Below, in pieces: positions 30,480 through 56,439 of a DNA stretch of 64,000 bases. This stretch comes from a bacterium (lineage in GTDB: Archaea; Thermoplasmatota; Thermoplasmata; Lutacidiplasmatales; UBA184). The stretch is taken from assembly GCA_027309555.1 (NCBI GenBank), contig DAIDCO010000001.1, positions 13,036-77,035 on the forward strand. Reading direction: 5' to 3'. The stretch's first letter is position 1, and each line of letters opens with the position of its first letter. The position numbers and the translations under genes are program-made. The notes beneath the pieces were generated by a model. It saw only the letters and a list, made by a program, of their open reading frames with translations. It did not search any database and was not told the DNA's origin.

Positions 30480-30809
30480 AGAGGCAGAGTCCAATGCCCT
30501 TTGAAACGTCGAACCGAGGAACTTTATACGAAGGTTCCTGTCATCCATCGAAGGTCCGGAGGTCTACACGGATGCGGCAAGAGTTTAGATTCGCTTCGTC
30601 TTGACAAAGATCGGAGCGGGGGCTCCGACCGAGCGTAGACCCTCGGTCGTCCCCTGCGCCCTTCTCGTTGAAGTTTCTCCCATCAGTGCCGGGGGGCGGC
30701 CTTCGGGCCGACCTACACCTGCCAACCCCGGCCGGGAGAGGGAGGCATGGATTAGAGAGCGATTTTCCACCTCGATACGCTAACAGATTCTTCGACAAGG
30801 GAGACCACT

Positions 30810-31694
30810 TTGACCTCGCAAGAGGAGTGGTGGTCCAAGAGAGCAAGAGAGTACACGCAGTCGAAGCGAGGAGCCAGCGACCGATGGAAGCGGACCACCT
30901 ACAACCTGCTACGAAACCTCGCAGTAGATGGAAGGAAGCCCGCGATCTTTACTCGGTCGTCCATCTCCCCACTTCCCCACGGCCCCTCGGAAGTCACCGA
31001 GGAGCAAGTGCTGGCCGTCAAGCGATTCGGAGTAGAGACCTACACGCCGCCGAGTCTCCGGGGGCTCCTATGGGGCTTCCGGGACTTCTTGGCGTGGGAT
31101 GGAAACAAGATCGCCAAGGACGATACGTTGTGGCTGTGTCCAACCGGGGACCCGATTCATCCTCGGTGGCTGTCGGCCCAGCACTTGGGCGACCTACTCC
31201 GCGCAGCGGTCGGGAGGGAACGCCCGGTCTGTGCTCTCCTCGGTACGTGCGGGCTTCGGAGTATCGAGGTATGGCGACTCCGATACCGGGATGTAGATAT
31301 GGACCTAGCCCACCCGACGCTCCGGGTTTGGGGGAAGGGCCGGTCCGGAGGGAAGTGGCGGACGGTCCCGCTTTCGAAGATCGCGTGGACCGAGCTCCTA
31401 CCGTTTGTCGAGGGGAAGAGACCCGAGGACCGCATACTACCGTGGGCGCTCGTCACGCTCCAATTGGACGTGAGGACCGCAGCACGGAGGGCGGGCCTGG
31501 TGGCTTCTACCCACGACCTACGGCGGTCGTTCGGCCGCGTGGCCTTCAAGGACGCGAAGGTGCCCCTGACGACCATACAGAAAATCTACGGGCACGCCAG
31601 CATCGACACGACCATCCGGTATCTGGGACTCAACCTCGACGACATGACGGATGGGATCGCCGCGTTCGACCGCGTTATGGCGGAGGTCGCGTAG
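30810..31694 (+). CDS. tyrosine recombinase / integrase
   Basis: Catalytic pattern GLRSIE (R), GKGRSGGKWRTVPL (K), HDLRRSF (H-x-x-R) and GHASIDTTIRYL (H...Y). TTG start. It reads toward attR. Confidence 0.9.
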   Translation: MTSQEEWWSKRAREYTQSKRGASDRWKRTTYNLLRNLAVDGRKPAIFTRSSISPLPHGPSEVTEEQVLAVKRFGVETYTPPSLRGLLWGFRDFLAWDGNKIAKDDTLWLCPTGDPIHPRWLSAQHLGDLLRAAVGRERPVCALLGTCGLRSIEVWRLRYRDVDMDLAHPTLRVWGKGRSGGKWRTVPLSKIAWTELLPFVEGKRPEDRILPWALVTLQLDVRTAARRAGLVASTHDLRRSFGRVAFKDAKVPLTTIQKIYGHASIDTTIRYLGLNLDDMTDGIAAFDRVMAEVA

Positions 31695-40754: not shown

Positions 40755-42236
40755 ATGGCAAAGGTCACGGTCCGGGTGCCGACCCCGCTACGCCCACTCG
40801 CCGGGGGCCTTGCTGAGGTCGTGGTGGACGGTGCGACGGTCGGGGGCGTCGTGGAAGAGCTCGCGCGCGCCCACGCCGGGCTCCGGCGCCATCTCTTCTC
40901 GCCCGAAGGCAAGCTGCGCAGTTTTGTCACAATCTACCTCAACGACGAGGACGTTCGCTACCTTCAACGGGACGGGACCCCGGTCGCGGAGGGGGACGTG
41001 CTCTCGATCGTCCCCGCGATCGCGGGCGGCGCCCCGACCGCGCTCTCCTCCGCGTCCCGCGACCGCCGCGAAGCGATCCCTTCGGCGGCGGACGCGTTCT
41101 CCCGGGACGACCTGCGCCGCTACAGCCGCCATCTCCTGCTCCCCGAGGTCGGAGTCGCGGGCCAGAAGAAGCTGCGACGGGCGAAGGTCCTCCTCGTCGG
41201 CGCCGGGGGGCTGGGGGCTCCGACGGCCCTCTACCTGGCCGCCGCGGGGGTCGGCGAGATCGGCCTCGTCGACTTCGACCGGGTCGACCTCTCGAATCTG
41301 CAGCGCCAGGTTCTCTACACGACCCGCGACGTCGGCCGGCCAAAGCTCGAGGCGGCGAAGGAGCGTCTCGAGGCGCTGAACCCGGGGGTCCGGGTCATCC
41401 CGCACGGGGAGCGCCTCACGGCCGACAACGCGCTCGGAGTCCTCGCGCCGTACGACATCATCGTCGACGGTACCGACAACTTCCCGACCCGCTACCTCGT
41501 CAACGACGCGTCGGTGCTGCTCGGGAAACCGAACGTCTACGGCTCGATCTACCGGTTCGAGGGCCAGGTGAGCGTCTTCGACGCGCAGCGGGGCCCGTGC
41601 TACCGATGCTTGTATCCCGAGCCGCCCCCACCGGACCTCGTTCCGTCGTGCGCGGAGGCGGGCGTTCTCGGCGTGCTGCCGGGGCTCATCGGGACCCTCC
41701 AGGCGACCGAGACGGTGAAGCTCCTCCTCGGTCAGGGGGAGCCCCTCATCGGCCGGTTGCTGCTGTTCGACGCGCTCGCGCTCAAGTTCCGCGAGCTCCG
41801 GCTCCGCAAGAACCCCCACTGCGTTCTGTGCTCGCCCCAAGCGACCCAGAAAGGGCTCATCGACTATCCGGCGTTCTGCGGCGTGGCGGCCCCCGGCGAC
41901 GAGGAGGTCGGCGGGGCCGTTCCGTCGATCGAACCGGAGGCGCTCGCGGCGGCGCTCGCCTCGACCGACCCTCCCGTGCTGATCGACGTGCGTGAACCGA
42001 TGGAATGGGCGATCGCCCATCTGCCGAGCGCGCGGCTGATCCCGGGAGCGGAACTTCCGGAGCGCGTAGACGAGTTCACTCGCGCGCGCGAGCTGGTCCT
42101 CTACTGCCGCAACGGCGGACGTTCCGCCCATGCGACGCGTCTCCTCCTCGACCTCGGCTTCTCGAACGTACGCAACCTCCGGGGGGGCATCCTCGCCTGG
42201 TCCGAGCGGGTGGACCCGAACCTGCCCCAGTACTAG
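40755..42236 (+). CDS. fusion protein: CysO/MoaD-like beta-grasp sulfur carrier (ends AIAGG at residue 92), ThiF/MoeB E1 and rhodanese (MoeZ-like)
   Basis: Residues 1-92 resemble CysO along their whole length (VTVRVPTPLRPLAGG...FVTIYLNDEDVRY...GDVLSIVPAIAGG). No stop follows the GG codons (41025-41030). Then come VLLVGAGGLGAP, CYRC/CVLC, PSCAEAGVLG and the rhodanese active site LYCRNGGRS. Confidence 0.9.
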   Translation: MAKVTVRVPTPLRPLAGGLAEVVVDGATVGGVVEELARAHAGLRRHLFSPEGKLRSFVTIYLNDEDVRYLQRDGTPVAEGDVLSIVPAIAGGAPTALSSASRDRREAIPSAADAFSRDDLRRYSRHLLLPEVGVAGQKKLRRAKVLLVGAGGLGAPTALYLAAAGVGEIGLVDFDRVDLSNLQRQVLYTTRDVGRPKLEAAKERLEALNPGVRVIPHGERLTADNALGVLAPYDIIVDGTDNFPTRYLVNDASVLLGKPNVYGSIYRFEGQVSVFDAQRGPCYRCLYPEPPPPDLVPSCAEAGVLGVLPGLIGTLQATETVKLLLGQGEPLIGRLLLFDALALKFRELRLRKNPHCVLCSPQATQKGLIDYPAFCGVAAPGDEEVGGAVPSIEPEALAAALASTDPPVLIDVREPMEWAIAHLPSARLIPGAELPERVDEFTRARELVLYCRNGGRSAHATRLLLDLGFSNVRNLRGGILAWSERVDPNLPQY

Positions 42237-42271
42237 CCGGACGGCCTTCGGCCCCCCCGAGGTCCCGCGGT

Positions 42272-42874
42272 CTAGCTCGTTTCGACCGGGGGGCTTGCGA
42301 GCGGGTCTCCGACGTCCACGGCCAACCGGCCGCTGTAGGACCGGACCCGGCGGGAGAGCTCTCGCGCGAAGCGGTCCGGCTGGCGCGGGGAGAGATACAG
42401 CGGATACTCTCCGGCGGTGACGAGGAGCCCGCGCGCGGCGTCGGTGTAGATCGAGTCGAACCGCCCGAGCACCGGGCTCCACATCCGCCCTCGCCATCCC
42501 CAGGAACCGAAGAATCCGCCGGTCGCCGCAAGGTCCCTCAGCGACGCGTATTCGATGCTTCGGACCTGGTCGAGGCGGACCTTGACGCCGCCGAGGATCC
42601 GCCGCGCTCGGAGGTACCGCTCGTCGATGCGGTAGTTCGTGGAGAGGTAGCGCGCGAGCGCGACGAGGAGGATCCCGGAGATCACATAGGAGCCCCACCA
42701 AGAGAGGACCGCCGAGCCCCGACCGAGGATCAAGACGACGATCAGAAGCAGGACGACGTACGTGCCGACGATCGTGTAGGAGATCGTCCCCCACGCATGG
42801 TATCGCCCGAGCGCGTCGAGCGCCCCGCGGTCGGAGGAGGCCGTTTCGAAAGACCGGTCGATCCGAGGGGACAA
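42272..42874 (-). CDS. hypothetical membrane protein (2 TM plus bacterial PH-like domain)
   Basis: The two TM helices and the RIDERYLRARRILGGVKVRLDQVRSIE region resemble the bPH/YdbS-type. The nearest usable starts are TTG 42874 or TTG 42946. The upstream part of the 339-aa ORF is ABCE1-derived pseudogene sequence. Confidence 0.45.
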   Translation of the reverse strand: MSPRIDRSFETASSDRGALDALGRYHAWGTISYTIVGTYVVLLLIVVLILGRGSAVLSWWGSYVISGILLVALARYLSTNYRIDERYLRARRILGGVKVRLDQVRSIEYASLRDLAATGGFFGSWGWRGRMWSPVLGRFDSIYTDAARGLLVTAGEYPLYLSPRQPDRFARELSRRVRSYSGRLAVDVGDPLASPPVETS

Positions 42875-42989
42875 CGGAATGGGGTTCGCCTCCGTCCACG
42901 CGGCCGGTATTGCGGTCCCGCGGCGGTCGTACGCCGCGCCCTGCAAATAGATTACCGTCGGCCCGGATCCGTAGATCCGGCGGCGGGTT

Positions 42990-43378
42990 CGGGTCCGTAG
43001 CAGGGCGGACGAGCACCGACTCGAAGAGGGCGGTGAGCGGCGTCGAGTTCCCGGGCCCATTGGGTCCGAGGAGGCCTGCGATTCCCCGGGGAGTCGGGAC
43101 CGGCAGGAGATAGAGTCGGACGCCGCGGTAGCCGTACCGGTGCACAATCCCGACTCGTCCGCCTCGGGCGTGTTGTGGATATGGATCGCATCGAACGGAC
43201 ACGTGACCGCCCAGACGTCTCGTCCTATGCAGAGAGTCTCCGAGCTGAGGGGGTCGCCGAGCGGCCCTTCGCCGATGCACTCCCGGCCCATGCGCGCCGT
43301 CGGACAGCGGACCCGGCGCTCCCATTGGCACCACTTCGGAAGGCGGCGGTCGAGCGCAGGATCTCATCCCACGCCAAC
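42990..43378 (-). pseudogene. decayed copy of the ABCE1 N-terminal region (FeS domain to P-loop)
   Basis: [47 protein letters not shown] versus genuine [47 protein letters not shown]: 33 of 47 identical by hand, with two cluster Cys lost. After a frameshift, IVHRYGYRGVRLYLLPVPTPRGIAGLLGPNGPGNST matches IVHRYGYNGFRLYRLPLPPPQGITGLLGPNGTGKST. Weaker similarity may continue to ~42800. Confidence 0.7.
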
Positions 43379-43384
43379 TAGAGA

Positions 43385-43720
43385 GAGAACCCCAAGTAAT
43401 TGCGCATGGTCGTTGGAGGGCCTCGTTTCCCCTCCGCCAGGCTTCGAAGGTGTGTTCCACTGCCGTGCCCACATCCTCGAGCTTGGGAAGGTGCCGATTC
43501 TGCGGACACCTCCGCAAGGTGAACTTCCAGACCCGTTCAGTCGGAATCAACCGCGGGCTTCCGGCGGGGAGGAACGAGTGCTCGAACCGGGGACTCGCCC
43601 CGCGTCGCCGCTCCTCGTGAAGGCGGGCGTGGGGGTACTGCGCGCTGTCGCCAATCACCACTCCTCGGCGCAGCACGAGGTGCTCTCCCGGTAGCGCGGA
43701 TGGAGGAACTGAGCGCGGCC
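43385..43720 (-). pseudogene. IS630/Tc1-mariner-family transposase C-terminal remnant
   Basis: VVIGDSAQYPHARLHEE...FEHSFLPAGSPRLIPTERVWKFTLRRCPQNRHLPKLEDVGTAVEHTFEAW matches the DDE_3 pattern (D..H......LPPYSP.LNPIE.VW...K......F..L..L...V...). No N-terminal half and no terminal repeats were seen. Confidence 0.65.
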
Positions 43721-43789
43721 GACCTTGTTGAGCGCTCCCTCGTCTCGCCGAGAAGTCATCTTCCCACCGCGAAGTCGGACGGCTCCCCA

Positions 43790-44065
43790 TTACTCGACCG
43801 ACTTGTCGGTCACGTGCACGAGGTCGGTTGGGTTTCCGAGGGGGAGCGGCGACGGGAGGAGCCCACGCGCGGCAGGACTCGGCGTCGGCCCGAACTCCCC
43901 GGGAATCACCCCCTCGGCAAGGGTCTGCGTGATGGCACCGCTCGGTGCGTGGGTCTCCGGCGCGACACTCAGAACCGGAGACGCGGCGACGACCGAGCGG
44001 GCGCCGAGGAACCGCTCGGTGAGCCCGTGCGCGTTCGCGACCCATTGGAGTCCGACGGCAATCAT
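43790..44065 (-). pseudogene. decayed fragment of an FtsX-type ABC permease (paralog of 53900-55147)
   Basis: ...ASPVLSVAPETHAPSGAITQTLAEGVIPGEFGPTPSPAARGLLPSPLPLGNPTDLVH versus genuine ...ASPVLSVDVDAYTTSGALSPVLAEGVIPAQFGPTLSPAERGLFPSPLPLGDPTDLRH. About 47 of 76 positions are identical by hand alignment. Confidence 0.7.
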
Positions 44066-44561
44066 CCCGCAGCGCCGGGCCGAAACGGATGGACGGGCTC
44101 CTCTTCGCCCCCGCCGCCCCGTCGCTGGGAGACCGTCGGCCGTGCCAGGTCCTCACTTCTTCCGGTGGGACCACGGGGTCTCCCCACCCCTCGTAACCCA
44201 TATCTACCGAACCCGGTTCTCCACCCGGAAGCGAACGCCGATCGAGCTCACCGCAAGCCCCGTAGCGCAGAGTCGGACCGAGGGAGGTCCACGCCCGCCC
44301 GGGCCTTGGCTCACCCGTGGGCCGAGGTATGGCAAGCCGGTCGCCCCGGCAGCACGCAACGGTGAAGGGAGGGCGGGCGACCGCTTGCAGGGGGAGGGAT
44401 TTATCCCTGCGCCAGCCCCCAAGCTGAGCCGGTCCGACCCGGGCACGTCGCCCGAGCTTCCCGAGCCCCATTCCACCGAAGGCGACATCGAGGGGAGACG
44501 GCGGCGATGGAGCCGTTCCGCCCGCTTCGTCCTCCGTCGCGCGGTCGGCGATCGGTTCCGG

Positions 44562-46553
44562 TTGTTGCTGATCCCCCCGTTCCTCGCCTACGTGGTGTTC
44601 TGGTCGTATGTGGACCTGGCCCGGCTCTACGCCCTCCAGGCAACCGTCTATGACCTCGGCTACAACATGCAGTTGCTCTGGTTCTCCCTCCCGACGACGG
44701 GCTCCCCCGGGTTCGGTTACTTGATCAAGATCGCTTACAATCCGGTTTGGGTCCTCTTCTCTCCGCTCTCGGTCGGTGCGCAGTTCCCGGTCCTTCTCGT
44801 CGTCCAAGCGATCGCCCTCGCGTTTCCTGCCTTCCTCGTCTACGAGATCTCGAAGCGCGAGCTGGGCCTGCCGATCCCTTCTTACTTAATCGCGCTCGGC
44901 TACCTGCTCTACCCCCTGCTCGCCGGGCCAAGTTGGTTCGACTTCCACTTCCAGGCGTTCTTCGTCCTGTTCTTCTTGGGCGGCTACTACTTCCTCCAGC
45001 GGGAGCGCCGCTGGGCTGCAGGAGTGCTGCTGATCCTGGGGGGGGAGGCGACGTATCCGTATGGCCTCCTGATCGTCCTGTTCGCGACAGTCACCGTCTT
45101 TGCCGAGCTGTATCGGCTTCAGTCATTCCGGGCCCTCGCGCGCTGGACGGAGTTCCGGTTCTTCCTCACGCTCGGTCTCGTGGCCGCCCTGCTTCTCGAA
45201 GTGCACCAGCTCATCGCCCCTGCGGTCGGCGTGCTAGGCGCCGCGCACGCTGCGGCTCAGCCGGTTGCTCCTAACCTCGGGAACGTTCTCTTCACGGTGG
45301 TACTGATCCTGGCCCCCCTCGGTTTCCTGCCGCTTCTCGCCCCCCGCTGGCTGATCCTTCTGGCCCCGTTCGCCTACCTACTCCTCTTCTCCGGTTCGCC
45401 GCTCTTCGCCTATCCACTCCTCCTCCAGGACCAGTACTCGGCCATGATCATCCCCTTCGTGTTCCTGGGGTTCATCGCTGGGGTCGCGCGACTGGCCCGA
45501 AGAACGGAGACGGCTCGCGTGGCTTCCACTCGGGAGCCGGCGCACCGGACTCGCCGGAGTCTCCCATGGGCCGCTCGCGAGCGCGCGCTCGCCACCGTGG
45601 TCCCGACGATCGCAATTGCGGTCCTCCTGGGGCTGGCCTACCAACCGTACGGCCCCTGGAATCCCACGACCGGGGCCAACTTTGGTCTCGGCCCCTTGCT
45701 CGAGTACAACCGAACCTCCTACGACGACCTGGCCGCGCTCGCGGGGCTGATCCCGGCCTCTTCCCCGTACGTCCTCTTCCAGAACAATATGCCGGAGGTC
45801 CTGCCCCGACCCGCGGCGTACGAAGGGGAACCGCTCACGACCTACCTCGACTGGGGAACCCCGACACGGGCGGAAGCGGATACCGGCCATTTCTCGCTCG
45901 TCCTGCCCTCGGGGAACCGCGTCGAAGCGACCATTGACTTTGCGCTCTCGGACCCGTACACCCCCCTCTGGTTCACCTACCATGGCCCGAGCCCCAACAC
46001 CTCCATGTACGACTTCATCCGCGTCCTCTACGAGAGCGGGGCGTACGGCATTCTAGGGGAGGCGGGCGGCATGGTGCTGCTCGAGCGGAACTACACCGGT
46101 GCCCCCCGGTTCTTCGTCCCCTTCGAGTCCACGTTCTCCTCGGCGAGCCTCCGGTCGACCGCGGCCTGTTCGCAGACGCCCTCGGCGATCGTCTGTTCGA
46201 ACGTCTCGCGGGTCTTCGCCGGCTGGTACGGCCCCTCCCTCTACCTCTCCCCCGGCACGTACGAGGTGCGCTTCTCGATGATGACGACCGACACCTCCGT
46301 TCAGAACCAGTTGTGGCTGCTGGCGACAGCGAACAGCCAATCGACCGTCTTCCCCGGGGGGGCCCTCCGGGTCACTGGGGCTGACTTCGGGCAGCCGAAC
46401 GTCTGGAAGACGTTCACGCTCAGCTTCACGGTGAACGACACCTACGCGAACGTCGAGTTCCCGGCCGACTCGATCGATTGGAATGGAAGCGTCTCTCTGA
46501 GCGGGGTCACCCTGGAGCAACTGGCCCCGGGCGCCGACCGCCCGCCAGCCTGA
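44562..46553 (+). CDS. DUF2079-family polytopic membrane protein (GT-C-like) with C-terminal beta-sandwich domain
   Basis: YDLGYNMQLLW near TM1, multiple TM helices and a long extracytoplasmic C-terminal part. There is no in-frame ATG or GTG near the first TM. TTG 44562 is the nearest start, so the start is uncertain. The palindromic AT-box AGGGATTTATCCCT at 44395-44408 is the only TATA-like element upstream. Confidence 0.7.
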   Translation: MLLIPPFLAYVVFWSYVDLARLYALQATVYDLGYNMQLLWFSLPTTGSPGFGYLIKIAYNPVWVLFSPLSVGAQFPVLLVVQAIALAFPAFLVYEISKRELGLPIPSYLIALGYLLYPLLAGPSWFDFHFQAFFVLFFLGGYYFLQRERRWAAGVLLILGGEATYPYGLLIVLFATVTVFAELYRLQSFRALARWTEFRFFLTLGLVAALLLEVHQLIAPAVGVLGAAHAAAQPVAPNLGNVLFTVVLILAPLGFLPLLAPRWLILLAPFAYLLLFSGSPLFAYPLLLQDQYSAMIIPFVFLGFIAGVARLARRTETARVASTREPAHRTRRSLPWAARERALATVVPTIAIAVLLGLAYQPYGPWNPTTGANFGLGPLLEYNRTSYDDLAALAGLIPASSPYVLFQNNMPEVLPRPAAYEGEPLTTYLDWGTPTRAEADTGHFSLVLPSGNRVEATIDFALSDPYTPLWFTYHGPSPNTSMYDFIRVLYESGAYGILGEAGGMVLLERNYTGAPRFFVPFESTFSSASLRSTAACSQTPSAIVCSNVSRVFAGWYGPSLYLSPGTYEVRFSMMTTDTSVQNQLWLLATANSQSTVFPGGALRVTGADFGQPNVWKTFTLSFTVNDTYANVEFPADSIDWNGSVSLSGVTLEQLAPGADRPPA

Positions 46554-46559
46554 TTCGCC

Positions 46560-47326
46560 TTCGAAACGCGCGTCGAATCCCGAACGGCACGCGGCTCCTC
46601 CCGGGCCGGCGACTCCGCGCGCGCGCCGCAGCGCGCCACCTCCGGCTGGAGGGGTTTCGGACCGCTGGGGACCGCCGGTGCCGACGCTCGACGCCCCGCG
46701 ACGCGATCGACGAACCGCAGGACGCGCCCGAAAGAGGCCATGGCCCGGAGCGCCGACTCGAGCGCCCAAGCAAGGGTGAGAGCCGCCGCACCGGGTGACC
46801 GGATCGGGACCTCGTTGATGGAGGGCAGTTGCTGTGTGTCATCGCTCCGACCGTTCCCGCCACCAGGATCACCACGGAGAGAGCGAGCGCAACTATCACA
46901 GGCGCGTAACCGGTCGACCCCGAAGCCATAGCGGCGACGGATGCCACTTCGACGATGGGCCGCATCCGGTCGACTGTCTCCCATGACTTGGCTTCGCAGC
47001 CACCCCACCCGCGCGCGAGTTCCCCCTCGCGCGGGTCGAAATCCGCATGTCGCCGGCTCTTGACGCTCGGAAGCGGCCTCAGGGCCGAGGGCGTCCTCCC
47101 CCCCGCACCGACAAGAGATCTCCCAGAAGCGGTGCCAGAGCCCGCGGGCGTCGGCCGCGGTCCATCGCCGGGGGTCCGGCGACCGGCCCGCTGATCGGAA
47201 GGCCGCGACGGCCCGGGTCGCGGCACAGCGGTAATGCGCGACCGTCTCAGCAGCGCAGCCCGCTCGCTGCTTCGAGAGGAACCAGGCCCTCGGATCCACC
47301 GTGGGGGCTCCATAGCCCCCCCACAC
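46560..47326 (-). pseudogene. frameshifted tyrosine-recombinase (integrase) remnant
   Basis: Frame A (47326-47117) reads WFLSKQRAGCAAETVAHYRCAATRAVAAF...RRWTAADARGLWHRF, which is N-terminal SAM-like. Frame B (47085-46970) reads ALRPLPSVKSRRHADFDPREGELARGWGGCEAKSWETV, compared with GLRSIEVWRLRYRDVDMDLAHPTLRVWGKGRSGGKWRTV in the intact integrase. A possible RHRRS (HxxR) lies near 46660. Confidence 0.4.
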
Positions 47327-47513
47327 AGGCTGAGCCCGTCACCTGAGCGGATCGTCTCGAACGTGAACGGTGGACCGAGATCCCCCCCGGTAGCGGGCGC
47401 CATCCTATCGACGCATATCCGTCGAGAAGGGCCGGGAGTCGCGGGCGAGCGACCGATCCTTTCGCGGAAGAACGGAAGGACGATATAGCACCCCACGGTA
47501 AACAATATCACAG

Positions 47514-48275
47514 ATGCCGTCGGAGCCGGGGACTCCGGGCATTCGCTTCGTCATTCCGGTGTGGAACGGGGAGGACCGCCTGGCCCGCACCCTCGAGAGC
47601 TATCTTCCGGCTCTGGAACGCCGGGGCGACCCGTTCGAGGTCGTGGTCGGCGGGGTTCGGGATCGCACGGCGGAGGTCGCGGCCCGCTACGCATCCCACC
47701 ACGTGCGCCTGTTGCAGATCCCCAACAACCTCGGAAAGGGGGATGCGATCCGAGCCGGGCCGCGGGTAGCGTGCCACGAGTACGTCGGCTATCTCGGTGC
47801 CGACGTACCGATCTCCCCCGAGGCGATTTACGGCCTCGTGGGCTGCCTCGAGGACGTCGACCGCGTCGTCGCCTCCCGCTGGCTGCGGGGCGCAGTCGGG
47901 GTGGAGGCGAAGCCGCTGTTCAACCGCGTCGCGGGCCGGGCGTGGAACTTCCTGACCCGCTCCTTGCTCTTCCTGCCGCTCCGCGACATCCAGGCGAGGG
48001 AGAAGTTCTTCCGCGGCTCGGTCGTCCGCTCGCTCCTCCGGAGCGTGACGCTGACGTACCGGCCGTTTGACCTCGACCTCCTCTACCACGTGCGGAAGTG
48101 GGGCGGACGAGTGAAGGAGTTGCCGGTCCGCTGGGCGCACGACCCCGCGAGCCACACCCCGGTCGGCCGCGCGCTCCCTGTGATGTTCCTCTCGCAGCTC
48201 CGGGTGCGCCTCCTCAACTCACCGGTGGGAAAGCGCGTCCCGCCGCGCTTCATCGCTTGGCCACACGGGTACTAG
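47514..48275 (+). CDS. family 2 glycosyltransferase (dolichyl-phosphate hexose synthase-like)
   Basis: Has IRFVIPVWNGEDRL, NNLGKGDAIRAG and the YLGADVP (DxD-like) region. Confidence 0.85.
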   Translation: MPSEPGTPGIRFVIPVWNGEDRLARTLESYLPALERRGDPFEVVVGGVRDRTAEVAARYASHHVRLLQIPNNLGKGDAIRAGPRVACHEYVGYLGADVPISPEAIYGLVGCLEDVDRVVASRWLRGAVGVEAKPLFNRVAGRAWNFLTRSLLFLPLRDIQAREKFFRGSVVRSLLRSVTLTYRPFDLDLLYHVRKWGGRVKELPVRWAHDPASHTPVGRALPVMFLSQLRVRLLNSPVGKRVPPRFIAWPHGY

Positions 48276-48280
48276 AGTTC

Positions 48281-50314
48281 ATGTCTATCGCTCCGAGCAT
48301 CGGCACGGTTTCTGGAGCCTCAACTTCAGGCAGCGCCAGTGTCACAACCCCGAACCAATCGGTTTCGTCGGGAGCCATGGTGTACGTCCAAGTGGCGATG
48401 TACGGAAGCGCTCTCGCGAATCCATCGATTGCCGACGCCCAGAGAGGAGTGTATTCCCTCCTCGGGAACATTCAGTCCGGCTCCGTCTTCCTTTGGGTTT
48501 TCCGACGGTCCTCTGGGGTGGTTTCTTCCTCCGCGTTTACGGTCACAGCCACGCCCTCATCGTCGACAGCGCCCATCGAGGTGATCGCGATAGAGGTTCT
48601 CAATGATGGCGGCGTCGACGTGGTTGGGCTTGCGAGCGGCACAGGCACCACTGAAACCGTAACCCGATTAACAACTACTGACAACGAGACAATCTTCTTT
48701 CTGGGGGCGGACAACTCCGCGACCTTCTCCTCTTGGGGAAGCGGCCAGACAGGGATCAGTTCTTACCCGGTACCTCCCTCAAGTGTGACTGCGTGGGGAA
48801 GCTACCAATCAGCGGCCTCTCTGGGATCCTTTGGCCCCAGTCGGAAGGTCACTTCGAGTACAGCCTGGGCAGCGGTATTTGTCGCGATTGCCTATCAGAC
48901 CTTTTGGCCCCAACTTGCGGGGAAAACGGGAGTGACGGTTTCCCCCATTGGGCTGCATACGACGCCGACCGCTCCGACGGCCAATGACGGGGCCGACTTT
49001 GGTCCTGACACACCAGGGACTACCACAAGTGGAATTCAAGAAGCTATCAACGGCGCGTTGAACAGCGGGTCACAAGCAGGTCCCCTGCCGATTCTCCTCC
49101 TGCCAGGGAACTTCGTGGTTAGTCCGGCGTCGGGGAACACGTACGCGATACTGCTGTACAGCGGCATCCACATCATAGGGGCGGGTCGATTGGAGTATGT
49201 CAACGCCGCGGGCACAGCCGAAGGATCCATCATATCGGCAGGTCAAGCCAACATGACACTCTTCAAGGCCAATAACGGGACCAGCCCAATCTCACGGGTG
49301 ACGATCGAGAGCCTCGCTTGTGGAACGACGTACTCAGGCGTCACAGCTTTCGACTTTACCTGGTCCTTGACGGGCAGTCCAGTAGCGACCGGACATGCCT
49401 TGCGATACATCACCATCGATGGAGCGTCCACCGGACAGCTGCCCTTCGCCATGGCCGCTCTCATGGACGGGAACGATGAGTGTGTATTCGAAGATTGGTA
49501 TGTATTCACGGGCGACATCCAGTGGCAGGCGACCTTCCCGAAACTAATCTCTATCAGCATGGTTCCTCCACTCTCGTCATCGGACACGTGCCGGATAATC
49601 TTGAACGGCCAGCAGGTTCTTGTGAGAGACAGCACGGTCTCGAACATTACTTTCACCAACACTCCGAGCACAAGCATTTACTTGGCCACGCTCGACAACG
49701 TCTACATGGTCAACAACAACTCTCACATTGGGAACATCACATGCGCCTGGCCAGCTTCTGGCCAGGTGGCCGTCGACTGCCTTCGGCTAGTGGGCTGTTT
49801 CATGGGCACCTACAAGAACAACTTCTCGATCTTCTACAATCCCGGCACGTCCTCGGGTCAGAACTTCAGCATCTACAGACTAGTCGTCGAGGGATGCCGG
49901 TTCGATACTTTGGGAAACTCGACAGGAGTGGTCTGGGTCAACAGTGCGAGTCCCACATTGACATTGGTAGCCATTGCAGGCAACGGGGCTGAAATGGCAT
50001 GGAGGGACAACTCTATCGTGGGTACCTTCGGAAGTGGAATCTCACTCTACGGAGGCTTCTACTTTCAACCTCGTCCAGCGGGAGTAGGCCTCAATCCCCA
50101 ACCCTCCGTACCCGGCAGCGGATCGAGCTTCACTAACGATTACCCTTGCGCAGTGGAGGTTTACATATACGGGGGGACCGGCAGCTCTCCATTCGTGAAG
50201 ATCAACGGTACGCGAGTGTCAGGGGCTTTGCAGGGACGGTTCCGTCTGGAACCTGGGGACAGCATCAACCTCGGCTACAGCAGTGCGCCGACCTGGCTGT
50301 GGTACGGCGACTAA
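48281..50314 (+). CDS. right-handed beta-helix protein (pectate-lyase-3 / tailspike-like), S/T/N-rich
   Basis: ATG at 48281. TTSGIQEAINGAL...GPLPILLLPGNFVV resembles the Pectate_lyase_3 N-cap (DdT.AiQ.Ain.A....g..v.lPaG.Y.v), followed by repetitive beta-strand-like segments. There are many N-x-S/T sequons and no obvious signal peptide. The gene has low G+C. Confidence 0.65.
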   Translation: MSIAPSIGTVSGASTSGSASVTTPNQSVSSGAMVYVQVAMYGSALANPSIADAQRGVYSLLGNIQSGSVFLWVFRRSSGVVSSSAFTVTATPSSSTAPIEVIAIEVLNDGGVDVVGLASGTGTTETVTRLTTTDNETIFFLGADNSATFSSWGSGQTGISSYPVPPSSVTAWGSYQSAASLGSFGPSRKVTSSTAWAAVFVAIAYQTFWPQLAGKTGVTVSPIGLHTTPTAPTANDGADFGPDTPGTTTSGIQEAINGALNSGSQAGPLPILLLPGNFVVSPASGNTYAILLYSGIHIIGAGRLEYVNAAGTAEGSIISAGQANMTLFKANNGTSPISRVTIESLACGTTYSGVTAFDFTWSLTGSPVATGHALRYITIDGASTGQLPFAMAALMDGNDECVFEDWYVFTGDIQWQATFPKLISISMVPPLSSSDTCRIILNGQQVLVRDSTVSNITFTNTPSTSIYLATLDNVYMVNNNSHIGNITCAWPASGQVAVDCLRLVGCFMGTYKNNFSIFYNPGTSSGQNFSIYRLVVEGCRFDTLGNSTGVVWVNSASPTLTLVAIAGNGAEMAWRDNSIVGTFGSGISLYGGFYFQPRPAGVGLNPQPSVPGSGSSFTNDYPCAVEVYIYGGTGSSPFVKINGTRVSGALQGRFRLEPGDSINLGYSSAPTWLWYGD

Positions 50315-50333
50315 CCTCTGGCGACGCGGGATT

Positions 50334-51077
50334 ATGGATCGTCCAGGACCTCTCGCCAATCAGCCTTACCACGCCAAGAGGTCGATGAAGTCTCGCCTGA
50401 AACGAATCCAGGCAGTCCTAGGAGTAGACCCTCTCTGGGAGCTCTTCTATCACACCCTGGGATCACAGGACGCCCCATCCGTCCTTCGATGGGGATTGGT
50501 CCCGCACAACTACTACGAGTTTGGAACCGGGTGGGGAGATAGTCTCCAGCGTTATCTCTCCGCTGCCCGGTCGTACTGTAGGGTCACGGGCAAGGACGAA
50601 CGCGAGTTCAATGTAGTGGCCTTCGACAGTTTTGAGGGTCTCCCCGAATCTGTTGCCGAGGCCGACCGGAATCCCAACTGGAGCCGGGGGGTGTACGCCT
50701 ACGGGCTCGATCACATCACCCGTCTGGTCCGCAGATCCGGATTCCGGGGCAAGTTCCTACCGGTCAAGGGGTTCTACGGCGACACTCTCACGAGTGATCT
50801 TAGGAACGAACTGAGAGCCATCCCTCCGTCGATTGTGAACATTGACGTCGACTACTACTCCAGCGCCGCCTCAGTATTGGCTTTCCTAAGCCCAATTCTT
50901 CAGAACGGTACCATCCTCTATTTCGACGATATCTACGACTTCTTTGGTTCTCCGAACAAGGGCGAGTTGCGGGCCGTTCTGGAGTTCAGCGCATCGAAAA
51001 CTGTCTCGTTGACTCCCTACTACCTACATGGGATACCGTATCTCTTTGGCAAGACTTTCGTCTTCTCTCGGGACTGA
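50334..51077 (+). CDS. TylF/macrocin-O-methyltransferase-like SAM-dependent methyltransferase
   Basis: YYEFGTGWGDS, FDSFEGLPE, VKGFYGDTL and the family C-terminal pattern VNIDVDYYSSAASVLAFLSPILQNGTILYFDDIYDF. Confidence 0.7.
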   Translation: MDRPGPLANQPYHAKRSMKSRLKRIQAVLGVDPLWELFYHTLGSQDAPSVLRWGLVPHNYYEFGTGWGDSLQRYLSAARSYCRVTGKDEREFNVVAFDSFEGLPESVAEADRNPNWSRGVYAYGLDHITRLVRRSGFRGKFLPVKGFYGDTLTSDLRNELRAIPPSIVNIDVDYYSSAASVLAFLSPILQNGTILYFDDIYDFFGSPNKGELRAVLEFSASKTVSLTPYYLHGIPYLFGKTFVFSRD

Positions 51078-51411
51078 TCCGCGGGGGCGGTCCGAACCAC
51101 TTGCTTACTGCGAAAAGCGAAGGGACTACCGCCGGCGAGAGAGCTGTGAAGACTGCCACGAGGACAGCCACGAGTGCGATTATGGACTGGTTGAAGTAGA
51201 AGCCCACGGCCAGGCCGGCGAGAGCGATTGCGATTCCGGCCGCGAAGGCTATCAGACGTCAGAGCCGCACACCCCCCCATCGTCGGCTAGAGATGAGCCC
51301 TCCCCGGCCGCCAAGGGAGGGGAAAGGGTTCGCTCCTTTGCGTTTGGAGGAACGAGAAGGGGCGGATACTACGGTTCCCGGTTGAACCGTGTTCTAGTGG
51401 GGCATTTCACG

Positions 51412-53190
51412 TCAACCGACCGCCTCGTAGTAGTATTCGCCTTTCTCGCGCTGCTCCCGGTCGAGAGCCGAGCCCTCGCGGTTGATGCGGGGTCGCAGCG
51501 TCTCCGCGTCCCGGCGGTAGGTGATGTCGACGGTGCGCAGCAGGCGGTTCATCCCCTCGCGCATCGCGAACGGCCCGTCTCCGCGTCCCCGCGAGCCGTC
51601 TTCGGTCTCCGAGCGGAAGACCATGAGCTCGTCGCAGGCGAGGTCGAGGAAGTAGACGTCGTGGTCCACGACGAGCGCCGAAACCGACTGGCGCTCGACC
51701 TGACGCCGGAGGAGGCGGGCCATCGACATCCGTTCGTCGGCGTCCAGATACGCGGACGGCTCGTCGAGCAGGTAGAGCGTCGCCGGGCGGGCGAGCGCGA
51801 GGGCGACCGCCGCCCGCTGGAGCTCGCCGCCCGAGAGGTCCGGGAGCGCGACATCGAGGATCTCGGAGAGGTGGAGCCCCGGGACGAGCTCGCGCTCGAA
51901 CAGACTCGCGTCGAACGTAGGGTCGGCGGAGAGTGCCGCCGTCCGCTCGCGGAGGCTGGCCGAGGAGGTCGCGCGGAGGTACTGGGGCTTGTAGCTCACG
52001 GTGACGCCCGGTGGCGGAGTGCCGCGGGTGGGAGGCTCGACTCCCGCGAGCATCCGGACGAACGTCGTTTTCCCCGTCGCGTTCGGGCCGACGATGCCGA
52101 CCGTCTCGCCCTTCGTGAGCCGGCCCCCGCCGACCGAGAGGTGGAAGTGGGGGAACTCCTTCTCGAGCTCGGGAAACTCGACGAGCGCGTTCTGACGGGC
52201 GACCGGCTTCGGGGGATGAGCGACGAAGCGGACCGGCTCCGTGCGGAAACGCACGTTCTCGTCCTTGAGGTAGCCGGTTAGGTAGGTGTTGATCGCCGAG
52301 CGCATCGGGAGGGGATGGCTGATGACGCCGAACGCGGCGGCCTCGCCGTAGAGGAGGTGGGCGGTGTCGGCGAGATAGTCGAGCAGGCCGAGGTCGTGCT
52401 CGACGACGAGAACGCTCTTCGTCGCTCCGAGGCGACGCAGCACGCGCGCGACGCGGAGCCGGTGCACGATGTCGAGATAGCTCGATGGTTCGTCGATGAG
52501 ATAGAGGTCGGCGTCGGTGGAGAGCGTCCGAGCGATCGCGGCCAGCTGGAGATGGCCGCCGGAGAGCTCGGCGAGCGGCCGGTCGCCCATCGCCCCGAGT
52601 CCGAGCTCGTCGAGCACCCTCGGTGCGTTCCCGCCCGCAGCGCGCACGTAGTCGAGCACGGTCCCCGGTTCGTCGGCGAGGCGGTCCACGTACTGGGGCT
52701 TGACGACGCTCCTCAGCTCGCCCTTCGCGACCCGCTCGAAGTGAGCCCGGAGCGCGGTGCCGCGGTAGTGCTCGAGGACCCGTGCCCAGCTCCCGGGCGC
52801 CCCGTACTCCCCGAGATTCGGCACCTCCGCGCCCGCGAGGAGCCGAAGCGCCGTCGACTTGCCCGTCCCGTTCGGCCCGAGGAGTCCCGTGATCCCCTGG
52901 GGAGGGGGCAGCGGCAAGCGGTAGAGGCGGAAGCCGTTGTAGCCGTAGCGGTGGACGATCTCGGACTCGTCGGCCTCGGGAGTGTTGAGGATCTTGATCG
53001 CATCGAAAGGGCATTTGTGCACGCAGATCCCGCAGCCGATGCAGAGCGTCTCGGAGATCACCGGCTTTCCGAGCGGCCCCTCCACGATGCACTCCTGACC
53101 CATGCGCACCGGCGGGCAGTACGCCTGGCACTCCCACTGGCACTCCTTCGGGTGGCAGCGGTCGGAGAGGAGGATCGCGATACGCGCCAT
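51412..53190 (-). CDS. abce1: ribosome-recycling ATPase ABCE1 (RNase L inhibitor homolog)
   Basis: N-terminal 2x[4Fe-4S] domain (CHPKECQWECQAYCP, CIGCGICVHKCP) and two ABC cassettes (GPNGTGKST, GPNATGKTT, LSGG signatures). Confidence 0.97.
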   Translation of the reverse strand: MARIAILLSDRCHPKECQWECQAYCPPVRMGQECIVEGPLGKPVISETLCIGCGICVHKCPFDAIKILNTPEADESEIVHRYGYNGFRLYRLPLPPPQGITGLLGPNGTGKSTALRLLAGAEVPNLGEYGAPGSWARVLEHYRGTALRAHFERVAKGELRSVVKPQYVDRLADEPGTVLDYVRAAGGNAPRVLDELGLGAMGDRPLAELSGGHLQLAAIARTLSTDADLYLIDEPSSYLDIVHRLRVARVLRRLGATKSVLVVEHDLGLLDYLADTAHLLYGEAAAFGVISHPLPMRSAINTYLTGYLKDENVRFRTEPVRFVAHPPKPVARQNALVEFPELEKEFPHFHLSVGGGRLTKGETVGIVGPNATGKTTFVRMLAGVEPPTRGTPPPGVTVSYKPQYLRATSSASLRERTAALSADPTFDASLFERELVPGLHLSEILDVALPDLSGGELQRAAVALALARPATLYLLDEPSAYLDADERMSMARLLRRQVERQSVSALVVDHDVYFLDLACDELMVFRSETEDGSRGRGDGPFAMREGMNRLLRTVDITYRRDAETLRPRINREGSALDREQREKGEYYYEAVG

Positions 53191-53192
53191 GC

Positions 53193-53903
53193 TCAGTTCC
53201 CCGCGACGTCCCGAACGACCGACCCGTCCCGCATCGTGAGGTGGCGGCCCGCGCGCGCCGCGACCTCGGGGTTGTGCGTGACGAGAAGGAGCGTCGCCGA
53301 CCGGGCGCTCCGGACGCGCACGAGGAGGTCGAGGATCGCGCGCGTGTTGCCGCTGTCGAGCTCGCCGGTCGGCTCGTCGGCGAGGAGGAGACCGGGTTGG
53401 TTCGCGAGGGCCCGGGCAACGGCGACGCGCTGCTCCTCGCCGCCCGAGAGTTGGTGCGGGAACGCACGTCCCCGGTCCGACAGCCCCACCTCGGAGAGCA
53501 GCTCGGCGGCGCGGCGGGTCCGATCTTCGCGCGGAAGTCCGAGCGCTCGCATCGGCAGCTCCACGTTCTCCTGGGCCGTCAACGTCGGGAGAAGGTAGAA
53601 CCGTTGAAAGATGAAACCCACGCTCCGTAGGCGGAGGCGGGCCCGCTCGCGGTCGGAGAGGCCCCCGACCGAATGCCCGTCCCAGCGCACCTCACCCGAG
53701 GTGGGCGCGTCGAGCAGGCCGACGAGGTTGAGCATCGTGGTCTTGCCGCAGCCGCTCGGGCCCTCGACGGAGACGAACGAACCGGACGCGATGCGGAGGT
53801 CGAGGGTGCGTAGCGCCCGCACCTCCTCGGCGCCCCCCGCGAAGTAGGTGCGCGAGACGTTCGCGAGCTCGAGCTCGGGGGGACGGGGGGCTGCGTCGTT
53901 CAT
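53193..53903 (-). CDS. ABC transporter ATP-binding protein (MacB/LolD-type)
   Basis: Walker A GPSGCGKTT, signature LSGGEEQR and Walker B LLADEPTGELD. Confidence 0.95.
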   Translation of the reverse strand: MNDAAPRPPELELANVSRTYFAGGAEEVRALRTLDLRIASGSFVSVEGPSGCGKTTMLNLVGLLDAPTSGEVRWDGHSVGGLSDRERARLRLRSVGFIFQRFYLLPTLTAQENVELPMRALGLPREDRTRRAAELLSEVGLSDRGRAFPHQLSGGEEQRVAVARALANQPGLLLADEPTGELDSGNTRAILDLLVRVRSARSATLLLVTHNPEVAARAGRHLTMRDGSVVRDVAGN

Positions 53904-55147
53904 CGGAGCGCCTCCCCGATCTCGAGCCGGAGCGCAGCCCGCGACGCGACCGCGCTCGCGAGCAGCGAGAGCCCCGCGACCCCGAGCGCGATCTCCGCGA
54001 GCACCGTCGGGTCGAACCGCGCGAGCGCCGCCGCTTCCTGGACGGTCGAGGTAGCCCAGGTCGCAAGGCCCTCGACCACGAGGTATCCCGCGAGGATCCC
54101 CGTCAACGCCCCGAGCACGGAGAGCAAGAGGCCCTCGCGCACGATCCCACCGGCGATCGACCAGCCGGGGAGCCCGAGCGCGCGGCGGATGCCGATCGAC
54201 CGATGCTCGGCCTCTACCCGGCGAAGGAGGACGAGGGCGAGGAACAGGAGTCCGATCGTGAGGCCGACCGAGGAGAGGGCGAGGTAGAAACCGGTGAGGA
54301 CCGCGTTCGCGCTCTCGAGTTGTTGCGCCTCTTGGGCGAGCGACGTCACGCTGTAGAGCGGGACGAGGGCTTGGATGCTGCCGCGCACGACCGCGAGCGC
54401 CGACGGGCTCACGGCGACCGCGCCCGTCACGGCCACCTGGACGGTGTCGGCAGCGTCCGGCACCGTGGCCGAGGCACTCGGCCCAAAGCCGGTCATCGTC
54501 TGGAGGTCCGAGAGGGGCAGGAGGACCAGGAAGGCGCCGGTGGGACCCAAGAGGGTCGGCAGCACACCGAACACCCCGGTCACGTTGTACAGGGTGCCGA
54601 GCGAGCGGTTCGTGGTCGGGCTCAGCAGCAGCGTGTCCCCGGTCCCGACGTGTTCGGCGGAGGCAAAGGGGAAGGAGATGAGCACGTCGTAGGTCGCTGG
54701 GCCGCTATAGGAGCCGTTGTCGAAGTGGCGGAGGTCCGTGGGGTCGCCGAGCGGCAGCGGGGAGGGAAAGAGCCCCCGCTCGGCGGGGCTCAAGGTCGGA
54801 CCGAACTGGGCCGGAATGACCCCTTCGGCGAGGACGGGAGAGAGCGCCCCCGAGGTCGTGTAGGCGTCGACGTCGACGCTCAGGACGGGCGAAGCGGCGG
54901 AGACCGAGCCGACGGCGAGGATCCGCTCGGCGAGCGCGTGCGCGTGCGAGATACCGTGGAGCCCCGCCGCACTCACCACGATCTGGTAGCCGGCGTTCTG
55001 GAGCGAGGCGAGCTCGTGAGCCGAGACGCCGCCGCCGACGCTGATGAGTACCACGGGGAGCGCCACGGCCGCGGCGATCGCCGCGACGGCGAGGACTACC
55101 TGGAGGCGGGTGTGACGGAGCGCTCGACCGCGACGGGGCCCTCTCAT
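53900..55147 (-). CDS. FtsX-type ABC transporter permease
   Basis: ATG at 55147 (MRGPRRGRAL) overlaps the upstream stop (ATGA). Has N-terminal TM1, a large extracytoplasmic domain and a C-terminal 3-TM FtsX domain. Confidence 0.85.
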   Translation of the reverse strand: MRGPRRGRALRHTRLQVVLAVAAIAAAVALPVVLISVGGGVSAHELASLQNAGYQIVVSAAGLHGISHAHALAERILAVGSVSAASPVLSVDVDAYTTSGALSPVLAEGVIPAQFGPTLSPAERGLFPSPLPLGDPTDLRHFDNGSYSGPATYDVLISFPFASAEHVGTGDTLLLSPTTNRSLGTLYNVTGVFGVLPTLLGPTGAFLVLLPLSDLQTMTGFGPSASATVPDAADTVQVAVTGAVAVSPSALAVVRGSIQALVPLYSVTSLAQEAQQLESANAVLTGFYLALSSVGLTIGLLFLALVLLRRVEAEHRSIGIRRALGLPGWSIAGGIVREGLLLSVLGALTGILAGYLVVEGLATWATSTVQEAAALARFDPTVLAEIALGVAGLSLLASAVASRAALRLEIGEALR

Positions 55148-56439
55148 GGCGCCCTCAGCTCCTCGGCCACCGGTAGCTGCATCGCTCGCGCCGCGGGGGC
55201 GATCGCGGCGAGCAACCCGACCGCGACCACGGCGAGGACCCCGGACAGGATCACCCCGGCGTCGAACACGACGAAGGAGAACGAGGTGGGAAGCCCGCTG
55301 ACGAGACGGAGGAGGTAGAAGTTCATCGCGGTCGCGCCGAGGTACGCGATCGGAAGGCCGATCCCGAGGCCGATCGCGGCGAGGACCAGCGATTCCTCCA
55401 CGACCGCGAGGCCGACGGACGCCCGCGAGTAGCCGATCGCGCGCAGCAGGGCGAGCTCCCGGCTCCGGTCGTCCACGGACATCTGGAGCACCGTTGTCGC
55501 GAACAGCGCGGCGACGACGAGCCCGATGAGTCCGATCAACGTCCCGAACGTTCGGTAGAGGTCCACGACATGCTGGATCGCACCGAGGATCTGGGAGAGC
55601 GTGAAGATCGTGAGCCCCGGGAAGGCGGCCTGGATCCGCACCTGGTCGGTCGACGCGCTCGTCGGGTCGCGCAGGTGGATGAGCAACACCGACGCGTAGT
55701 CGGTTCCCGAGCTGGCGCCTCCCACGATCGTCTGAAGCTCGGAAAGGTAGACGAAGGAGAGGAGGGCGGACGGGATGAGCCAGAACGGCCCCGAGACGCC
55801 GACGACCTGGAACGCCGAGGCGTTCGCGTACCATCCGGGGATCTCGGAGTTCGTCGCCGGGCTCGCCGGACTCGCCCAGACCCGGTCCCCGACGGTGACC
55901 CGGAGCACCGCGGCGAGCGCCTGGTCGAGCACGATCTCGTGGGTCGTGGGTCCGGAGTAGGTCCCGTTCGCGTAGTGCGGATCTCCCGGTTGCGTGAATC
56001 CGGTGCCGTTGTAGAGGTCCGGCGTCTCGATCCCTCCGTTGTTCGAGGGGATCCAACCGACCGTCCCCGACCCGGTAGGGGTCCAGCCGGCCGGCACCGC
56101 GCTCGCGTTAGCGGCGGACCACAGCGAGGCGTTCCCGAAGACCAGATTCGCGACGAGCCAGGGACTCGCCGTCACGACGTTCGGATCGACCCGGGGGACC
56201 TCGGAAGCGAGCGAGTGGGCGCCCGGGATCGGCGGGAACTCGGTCGACGTGATGGACGTGTTCGCGCTCGCCCCGATCAGGTCGACCCCGCTCGCGGTCG
56301 CGAGCTCCGCCGCGCTCGTCTGGACGCCGTTCGAGAGAGCGAGCAGCGTCACGACCAAGCCGATCGCGAGGCCGAGGCCGAGCGACGTGAGCACGGAACG
56401 GCGGGGTCGTCGCCGTATCGCATCGAGGGCATAGCGCAT
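55144..56439 (-). CDS. FtsX-type ABC transporter permease
   Basis: Same architecture (MRYALDAIRRRPRRSVLTSLGL...). The C-terminal FtsX helices contain the RAIGYS motif. Confidence 0.85.
   Translation of the reverse strand: MRYALDAIRRRPRRSVLTSLGLGLAIGLVVTLLALSNGVQTSAAELATASGVDLIGASANTSITSTEFPPIPGAHSLASEVPRVDPNVVTASPWLVANLVFGNASLWSAANASAVPAGWTPTGSGTVGWIPSNNGGIETPDLYNGTGFTQPGDPHYANGTYSGPTTHEIVLDQALAAVLRVTVGDRVWASPASPATNSEIPGWYANASAFQVVGVSGPFWLIPSALLSFVYLSELQTIVGGASSGTDYASVLLIHLRDPTSASTDQVRIQAAFPGLTIFTLSQILGAIQHVVDLYRTFGTLIGLIGLVVAALFATTVLQMSVDDRSRELALLRAIGYSRASVGLAVVEESLVLAAIGLGIGLPIAYLGATAMNFYLLRLVSGLPTSFSFVVFDAGVILSGVLAVVAVGLLAAIAPAARAMQLPVAEELRAP

Follow-up and report, generated by a model that had tools for sequence, protein, structure and literature searches.

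ABCE1 (RLI) is an essential ribosome-recycling factor and a universal single-copy gene of archaea. The locus described here raises the question of how part of a second ABCE1 came to lie near the intact gene in an archaeal genome, and in what order the pieces were broken. The locus lies in a 64,000-nt stretch of the Thermoplasmata assembly GCA_027309555.1 (contig DAIDCO010000001.1, positions 13,036 to 77,035), which we call the window and in whose numbering all coordinates are given. The genome is a 2.04-Mb bin of 114 contigs with 68.8% G+C. An earlier reading of the window (the original prediction) had described a decayed partial copy of the locus encoding ABCE1 and an ABC transporter, with a remnant of an IS630-like transposase between the pieces.

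The intact reference operon occupies 51412–56439 on the minus strand. It comprises FtsX2 (55144–56439) and FtsX1 (53900–55147), both matching the Pfam FtsX permease family, an ABC ATPase (53193–53903; Pfam) and ABCE1 (51412–53190), which carries Fer4_RLI, Fer4 and two ABC_tran domains. The order is the same in congeneric genomes, with folE2 upstream. We conclude that ~1.3 kb of dead fragments near this operon are what is left of a second copy of it, broken by an old insertion sequence (IS). As read from the sequence, the second segment is FtsX1 (from codon ~58)–ATPase–ABCE1; primes are used below for the genes of this copy.

Three relics of a second operon copy

When positions 42000–44900 were compared with the whole window by blastn, only two non-self matches were obtained, one within ABCE1 (43036–43363 against 52847–53176; 75.5% identity over 330 nt, E 1e-60) and one within FtsX1 (43820–44064 against 54731–54975; 72.1% over 247 nt, E 1e-29). 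The proposed similarities are thus significant, and the relics all lie on the minus strand in the order of the intact locus, as had been claimed. For the ATPase gene and FtsX2, tblastn gave no counterpart among the relics.

The ABCE1 relic (codons 1–118; 43026–43377, minus strand) was delimited by blastn, tblastn, codon-position counts and a codon-wise alignment of 21 sequences, consisting of the relic, 18 congeneric ABCE1 genes and two outgroups. By tblastn, amino acids 10–76 and 78–118 of ABCE1 were matched at 66% and 71% in two different frames (joint E 1e-35), which is the predicted N-terminal match followed by a frameshift and a second block through the P-loop. In the alignment, homology reaches the start codon, where ATG has become TTG (43377–43375), and runs to about codon 118 (43026), with two 1-nt deletions on the way. 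After correction of the frame, 75 of 116 residues are identical to the intact protein. Four of the eight Fe-S cysteines are gone, although all eight are retained in the 18 congeneric genes: the two changes to arginine and tryptophan noted in the original prediction are C53R and C56W, and C12R and C21R are additional. The lysine of the first Walker-A motif has been replaced by asparagine, so that GKST reads GNST (within GPGNST). Descent from ABCE1 is clear from the protein and DNA E-values and from the tree, in which the relic falls within the genus with 100% support relative to the two outgroups. A functional ABCE1 has eight cysteines for two [4Fe-4S] clusters and two complete ABC domains in one open reading frame (ORF) of ~590 amino acids. 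The relic resembles archaeal ABCE1/RLI in its homology to codons 1–118, which cover the Fe-S domain and the first P-loop, but it has 20% of the length, lacks half of the cysteines and the Walker-A lysine, carries two frameshifts and is not a functional member of the family.

The homology of ABCE1′ stops at ~43026, and the following 150 nt (42875–43025, minus strand) are a filler with no detectable homology. Smith–Waterman comparison of this filler with ABCE1, the island ends and other spacers gave scores no better than those of shuffled sequences (z<1.5), and the 3′ end of ABCE1 was unrecognisable there when it was aligned with the relatives. The suggestion that weaker resemblance continues to ~42800, into the 5′ part of a 339-aa ORF at 42272–43291, is therefore not supported: 42875–43025 matches nothing, and 42272–42874 is the gene for a bPH_5-domain protein, which is discussed below.

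The FtsX1 relic (permease codons ~58–146; 43799–44064, minus strand) was recognised by blastn, tblastn and alignment with 16 congeneric genes. By tblastn, amino acids 60–146 of FtsX1 were matched at 60% (52/87; E 8e-28), in agreement with the fragment of an FtsX permease that had been predicted. The relic corresponds to the periplasmic part only and forms an open 91-aa frame without indels; it has no transmembrane (TM) helices and no FtsX domain, and no Pfam family was matched. A permease of the FtsX/MacB type has an N-terminal TM helix, a periplasmic domain and a C-terminal four-helix FtsX domain, of which only codons 58–146 are represented here.

Between these two pieces lies the 3′ ~433 nt (39%) of an IS630-family element (43379–43811, minus strand), recognised by a weak DDE_3 match and by DNA and protein similarity to intact copies. 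It consists of the C-terminus of the transposase and the right end (...CTCTC-TA-G), and keeps only nucleotides ~677–1111 of 1111. The remnant predicted between the pieces is thus confirmed, and it extends further than had been claimed, to 43811, across one frameshift due to a 1-nt deletion; a TAC codon has become TAA, and the TAG stop has become TGG. The Pfam DDE_3 match (E 3e-4; 21.1 bits against a cut-off of 28.6) covers profile positions 80–144 of 146 only. Compared with intact copies of the family in its own genome and in a congener, the remnant is 68–70% identical in protein and 75–81% in DNA (74.7% to the copy on contig C62, and 81% to nucleotides 677–1099 of the 1111-nt copy in congener G012). 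The C62 relative, 68% identical to the remnant, has an intact DDE_3 domain (92.8 bits).

The proposed search for intact copies and their terminal repeats was fruitful. The G012 element (locus L047, contig G012:C51) is complete at 1111 nt, flanked by C-TA and TA-G, with terminal inverted repeats of ~28 nt that match at 21 of 28 positions; a helix-turn-helix (HTH) ORF and a DDE_3 ORF are joined at an A8 run. In the genome studied here the 1111-nt element is split at contig ends (C28:6-502 with C62:12463-13051, and C55:16262-16338 with C113:1-77), and from these two splits the number of live copies is at least two. Among 24 congeners the element is present in only 3. The window copy, C62 and C113 all have ...TA-G as their right end.

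From these sequences the element fits the IS630 family, whose type member makes a 2-bp TA duplication in a CTAG target (Tenzen & Ohtsubo 1991, as tabulated in PMC2577343, Table 1). It shares with the family a DDE_3 transposase, as scored in the intact C62 relative, a length of ~1.1 kb, terminal inverted repeats of ~28 nt, the TA-G right end of three copies and the C-TA...TA-G context of the full G012 copy. Insertion in the family is at TA (often within CTAG) with duplication of the TA; the window copy stands at a TA, and with its left end deleted its own duplication is no longer visible. The window remnant differs from a complete ~1.1-kb element with terminal inverted repeats in that only the 3′ 39% is left, with a decayed right repeat, and it is immobile. 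The live relatives also differ from IS630 itself, which has a single ORF, in having two ORFs that meet at the A8 run, a layout that probably needs a frameshift. The A8 run is conserved between G000 and G012, which suggests programmed frameshifting or transcriptional slippage.

Across the three relics, 106 of the 618 sites (17%) that are invariant in functional homologues had changed, and the changes were spread flatly over the codon positions. For ABCE1′ the proportions at codon positions 1, 2 and 3 were 16.7, 19.5 and 25%, and for the IS remnant 13.5, 19.1 and 17.2%; the two live IS copies differ from each other by 3.6, 5.8 and 32.6%. The G+C content at the three positions was 0.68, 0.55 and 0.82 in the relic versus 0.61, 0.48 and 0.92 in the intact copy, and the three relics together carry three 1-nt deletions. 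All three pieces are dead. The extent of decay is similar in all of them, so that the IS insertion and the loss of function are old and roughly equal in age. The polarised substitution spectrum gave 59 AT>GC changes at 255 sites (0.231 per AT site) and 29 GC>AT changes at 363 sites (0.080 per GC site), which implies an equilibrium of ~74% G+C, near the 69% of the genome. Coming from non-functional DNA, this spectrum points to GC-biased mutation or fixation in the lineage.

The lost residues, frameshifts and flat decay bear out the proposal of a non-functional second FtsX1–ATPase–ABCE1 segment with an IS630-type remnant between its pieces. The scar resembles ordinary prokaryotic pseudogenes and IS-disrupted remnants in its frameshifts, lost catalytic residues, truncation, IS scar and codon-position-flat substitutions; it differs from them in being unusually old for a 2-Mb genome, given the 17% of invariant sites changed, and in being derived from ABCE1, a further fragment of which was absent from all 40 relatives.

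We give almost no credence to an artefact, in which a chimeric contig would have joined reads of two related populations or the similarity would be due to chance. The genome is a metagenome bin in 114 contigs, as such an artefact would require, but the E-values of the two blastn matches speak against chance, and co-assembly of strains would not yield truncated, frameshifted pieces parted by an IS remnant. Moreover, the 16 kb from MoeZ to folE2 were 99.7–100% identical in two other National Center for Biotechnology Information (NCBI) bins and three single-run Logan assemblies, with the differences among these assemblies clustered at a scaffold gap. Because of this identity in five other public assemblies, the locus is not an assembly artefact. 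The scar is a real, well delimited and old pseudogene and IS remnant at a variable junction, and is a feature of an ordinary kind.

Junctions and the order of breakage

All 24 congeners in which the region was assembled have a single ABCE1 and no second fragment. In seven of them (G004, G006, G008, G009, G012, G014 and G016) ABCE1 is followed within ~30 nt by the bPH gene, whose start overlaps the end of ABCE1 in G004. The flanks are conserved, with folE2-FtsX2-FtsX1-ATPase upstream and a convergent MoeZ downstream. In the synteny comparison that had been called for, both outer flanks are thus ancestral. In the window 8.5 kb of accessory DNA separates ABCE1 from bPH, with the relics at the bPH end. 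Because ABCE1 directly abuts bPH in the relatives, the place held by the relic is the one that ABCE1 had ancestrally.

The IS ends on the right (...CTCTC-TA-G) immediately next to the TTG of ABCE1′, which places the insertion of the element at a TA directly before the ABCE1′ start. This insertion site corresponds to the position of the ATPase stop codon in the intact operon. At the other junction, FtsX1′ codon ~143–146 is joined to the interior of the IS, at a place where the parental sequences are alike (CCTC..CAC..GAC..ACAAG). The deletion eliminated what followed in FtsX1′, the entire ATPase′ gene and 61% of the IS. Since its endpoint lies inside the IS, most of which was destroyed, the deletion was not of the adjacent type made by a transposase. 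The short patch of similarity at the junction instead points to a deletion by illegitimate recombination, and the ‘IS-mediated deletion’ of the original prediction does not hold as worded.

Synteny shows the ancestral state to be folE2-FtsX2-FtsX1-ATPase-ABCE1-bPH-MoeZ, with ABCE1 and bPH ~30 nt apart. We infer that DNA with a homologous FtsX1′-ATPase′-ABCE1′ segment was joined at the ABCE1|bPH junction, its source being most likely a congeneric lineage at about sister-species divergence. This could have occurred by one homologous and one illegitimate crossover, or by a single crossover with a circular molecule, and would have produced ...ABCE1 – junction/cargo – FtsX1′ (codon 58 onward)-ATPase′-ABCE1′ – bPH. 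As one copy sufficed, the copy beside bPH would have lost constraint. The later steps are those recorded in the relics themselves. An IS630-family element entered a TA directly before the start of ABCE1′; a deletion running from FtsX1′ codon ~143–146 to IS nucleotide ~677 then cost the locus the remainder of FtsX1′, ATPase′ and 61% of the IS; and ABCE1′ was cut after codon ~118, with loss of the native bPH start region too. The three relics finally drifted neutrally, until ~17% of once-invariant sites had changed and the base composition of the codon positions had converged. The accessory island accumulated at the same ABCE1|bPH junction, and the relics serve no function themselves.

Such a history resembles homology-facilitated illegitimate recombination or Campbell-type integration in its ancestral outer flanks, in the presence of one segment twice in direct order and in the foreign cargo at a novel junction. 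It differs in that microhomology or a circular intermediate is not demonstrable after ~17% decay, so that in this archaeal lineage the architecture is what suggests the mechanism. Homology-facilitated illegitimate recombination is reportedly known from natural transformation in bacteria.

The source of the second copy

The original prediction had offered an old segmental duplication or DNA from a donor genome. The evidence leans towards donor DNA and neither origin is proven; we think it rather probable that two congeneric lineages, diverged to about species level, each contributed one of the copies. At third codon positions the relic and its own intact copy differed by 0.418 +/- 0.035 (n=196). 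The own copy differed from other species by 0.38–0.56 and the relic by 0.45–0.59, and the excess of the second set of distances over the first puts the relic's own third-position decay at ~0.19. C<->G differences at third positions amounted to 0.257 between relic and own copy, compared with 0.25–0.38 between species and only 0.03 per G/C site from decay. For a duplicate decaying from the start, a third-position difference of no more than 0.29–0.33 would be expected. Most of the synonymous divergence therefore seems to predate the loss of constraint, since the observed value exceeds this expectation and the C<->G differences stand at the interspecies level. The C<->G data suggest that a fraction of ~0.8 of the relic's branch was under constraint. 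Among the informative sites of the IS remnant, 44 were shared with the G012 copy and 14 with the live copy of its own genome.

The other origin would be an in-genome segmental (tandem) duplication of FtsX1 (codon 58)...ABCE1, with or without the island. The bPH-side copy would have been redundant at once and would then have decayed through the same IS insertion and deletions. We regard this as possible though not probable. It would have to accommodate the excess at third positions and a C<->G value that is about four times the two-lineage decay expectation (2 x 0.03) and equals the lowest interspecies values. In addition, with its truncation at codon 58, FtsX1′ could not have remained under selection in the same genome.

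Several findings weigh against a donor, and some of them are what duplication would predict. For both genes the own intact copy is the closest in raw identity (ABCE1, 74.6% versus at most 72.2%; FtsX, 69.3% versus at most 63.3%). The concatenated maximum-likelihood tree, and thus the topology of best likelihood, joins the relic to the own copy (bootstrap 76%) across an internal branch of zero length. The approximately unbiased (AU) test rejects as source only the G002/G005/G013/G014 clade, and placement as sister to the own copy was inseparable in this test from most alternatives. No closer donor was found among 5.8 billion proteins, where the best of 49 FtsX homologues reached 61% against 60% for the own copy. 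Around the island we found no att sites, integrase or flanking repeats that would define a mechanism, and the att-like repeats there are the ABCE1 repeat itself and short matches at chance level. The clock argument, for its part, is drawn from ~200 third positions and supposes that former first/second positions mutated at the same rate as third positions, and either copy could be the incomer. Duplication also agrees with the ancestral state of both outer flanks and with the ABCE1 part taken alone, for which dN/dS is ~0.4, close to the 0.5 expected.

Of the two proposed origins, then, donor DNA is favoured by third positions near interspecies values, although the relic is marginally nearest to its own copy. 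The phylogenetic placement that had been suggested puts the relic inside the genus; a paralog and a xenolog were not separated by the AU test.

The intact genes rank the relatives as the flanking folE2 and MoeZ do, and the relic does roughly likewise. The closest congeners compared share 84–86% ABCE1 identity with this genome. It is unlikely, though worth stating, that the relic is the native copy and the intact operon an incomer from a congeneric donor, brought in by duplicative recombination, with the displaced copy decaying beside bPH. If this were true, the locus would preserve, as a fossil from which neither copy has yet disappeared, the replacement of a core translation gene by an orthologue.

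The bPH gene, the accessory island and the meaning of the relics

The bPH_5-domain membrane protein gene (42272–42874, minus strand) is intact and conserved. It scores 25.2 bits against a Pfam gathering cut-off of 22.5 and has the conserved N-terminus with two TM helices. Its homologues in 13 congeners are 51–60% identical, 180–222 aa long and located beside MoeZ. The protein corresponds to the last 200 codons of the 339-aa ORF (42272–43291), which has in-frame starts at ATG 43291, TTG 43147, ATG 43060, TTG 42946 and TTG 42874. The start is uncertain, with TTG 42874 the likeliest on comparison with relatives, as it gives the length seen there, and the bPH genes of the relatives compared run to 180–193 aa. 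Relatives have a start region that touches or overlaps the stop of ABCE1; this ancestral region is missing here, and there is no nearby ATG or GTG. Upstream of the gene, at 42955–42939, lies an AT-rich patch, GGTAATCTATTTGCAGG, which could be a TATA box.

Could the longer ORF be a live chimeric gene, in which an ABCE1-derived ATG starts a degenerate ferredoxin-like piece that is fused to the bPH protein and expressed? No stop interrupts the frame between ATG 43291 and the end of bPH, gene callers give 339 aa in five assemblies, and with the native start region gone a new start was required. However, the extension keeps the ABCE1 frame for no more than 48 residues, from which two of the four cluster cysteines are missing; the next ~40 codons are out-of-frame ABCE1 with G+C highest at position 2; and the homologues of the 13 congeners align only from about residue 10–20 after TTG 42874. 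Open frames are also cheap at 69% G+C, and a 1339-aa antisense ORF spans the same DNA. The G+C periodicity of coding sequence (position 2 low, position 3 high) is present in the bPH core from ~42874 down only; segments upstream of it have high third-position G+C with atypical first and second positions, and the out-of-frame ABCE1 block peaks at position 2. A chimeric protein is unlikely on this reading of the frames, and that such a gene is live seems very improbable.

The accessory island (44066–51411, plus strand) was defined from Pfam matches, the G+C profile and its absence in relatives. It contains, in order, ~500 nt of unmatched DNA, a DUF2079 membrane protein, ~960 nt of unmatched DNA, a GT2 glycosyltransferase, a beta-helix protein and a TylF-like methyltransferase. 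The two unmatched segments (44066–44590 and 46554–47513) gave no Pfam, Rfam or intra-genome match, and the first gave no Pfam match in its three minus-strand frames. A candidate integrase relic at 46560–47326 was rejected, as there was no tblastn similarity to the intact integrase at 30756–31691 (best E 2.1 within the candidate stretch) and no Pfam match at E<=1 in any minus-strand frame. Neither Rfam families nor tRNAs were found in the ranges covered, 42–52 kb and 38–60 kb. The public 803-aa call for the DUF2079 gene (from 44142) is probably over-extended by ~150 residues rich in proline, arginine and glycine; the Pfam DUF2079 domain and the homologue in G008 begin near 44601. No relative has the DUF2079 gene at the corresponding place, and the island is not conserved in the genus. 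Directly downstream of intact ABCE1, over the beta-helix and TylF-like methyltransferase genes (48000–51411), G+C drops sharply: the ABCE1-proximal 3.4 kb of the island (48.0–51.4 kb) has 55–59% G+C against 69–72% in the flanks. This low-G+C segment appears to have been inserted more recently than the relics, which lie at the opposite end of the island.

Breaks recur at the ABCE1|bPH junction, where the folE2-FtsX-FtsX-ATPase-ABCE1 block ends: the junction is open in five congeners and intact in seven. It is opened by unrelated content of 2 kb in G002, 3 kb in G011 and 32 kb in G010. The gap is 9 kb in G007 (pirin, patatin) and 11 kb in G013 (citrate synthase, GHMP kinase, a pyridoxal phosphate (PLP) enzyme); both hold unrelated genes, so that no island is shared. 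At the neighbouring MoeZ gene (ThiS-ThiF-rhodanese), the homologue in one congener (G008:C35:2689-3927) matches from residue 82 only and has two in-frame stops (TAG and TAA), so that it is possibly a pseudogene of the fused sulfur-carrier/E1 gene.

What is known of ABCE1, of ABC exporters and of IS630 is unchanged by the relic. Its survival shows that pieces of a ‘single-copy marker’ can remain in a genome, a point of importance for marker-based estimates of contamination in metagenome bins, and ~1.1 kb of DNA that is demonstrably free of constraint offers a rarely available view of the neutral substitution spectrum in an uncultured high-G+C member of the Thermoplasmata. The claim that the fragments mark the history of the accessory region is supported: the relic dates and orders the events behind a cell-surface and glycan island at ABCE1|bPH, a junction found broken in roughly half of the species of the genus.

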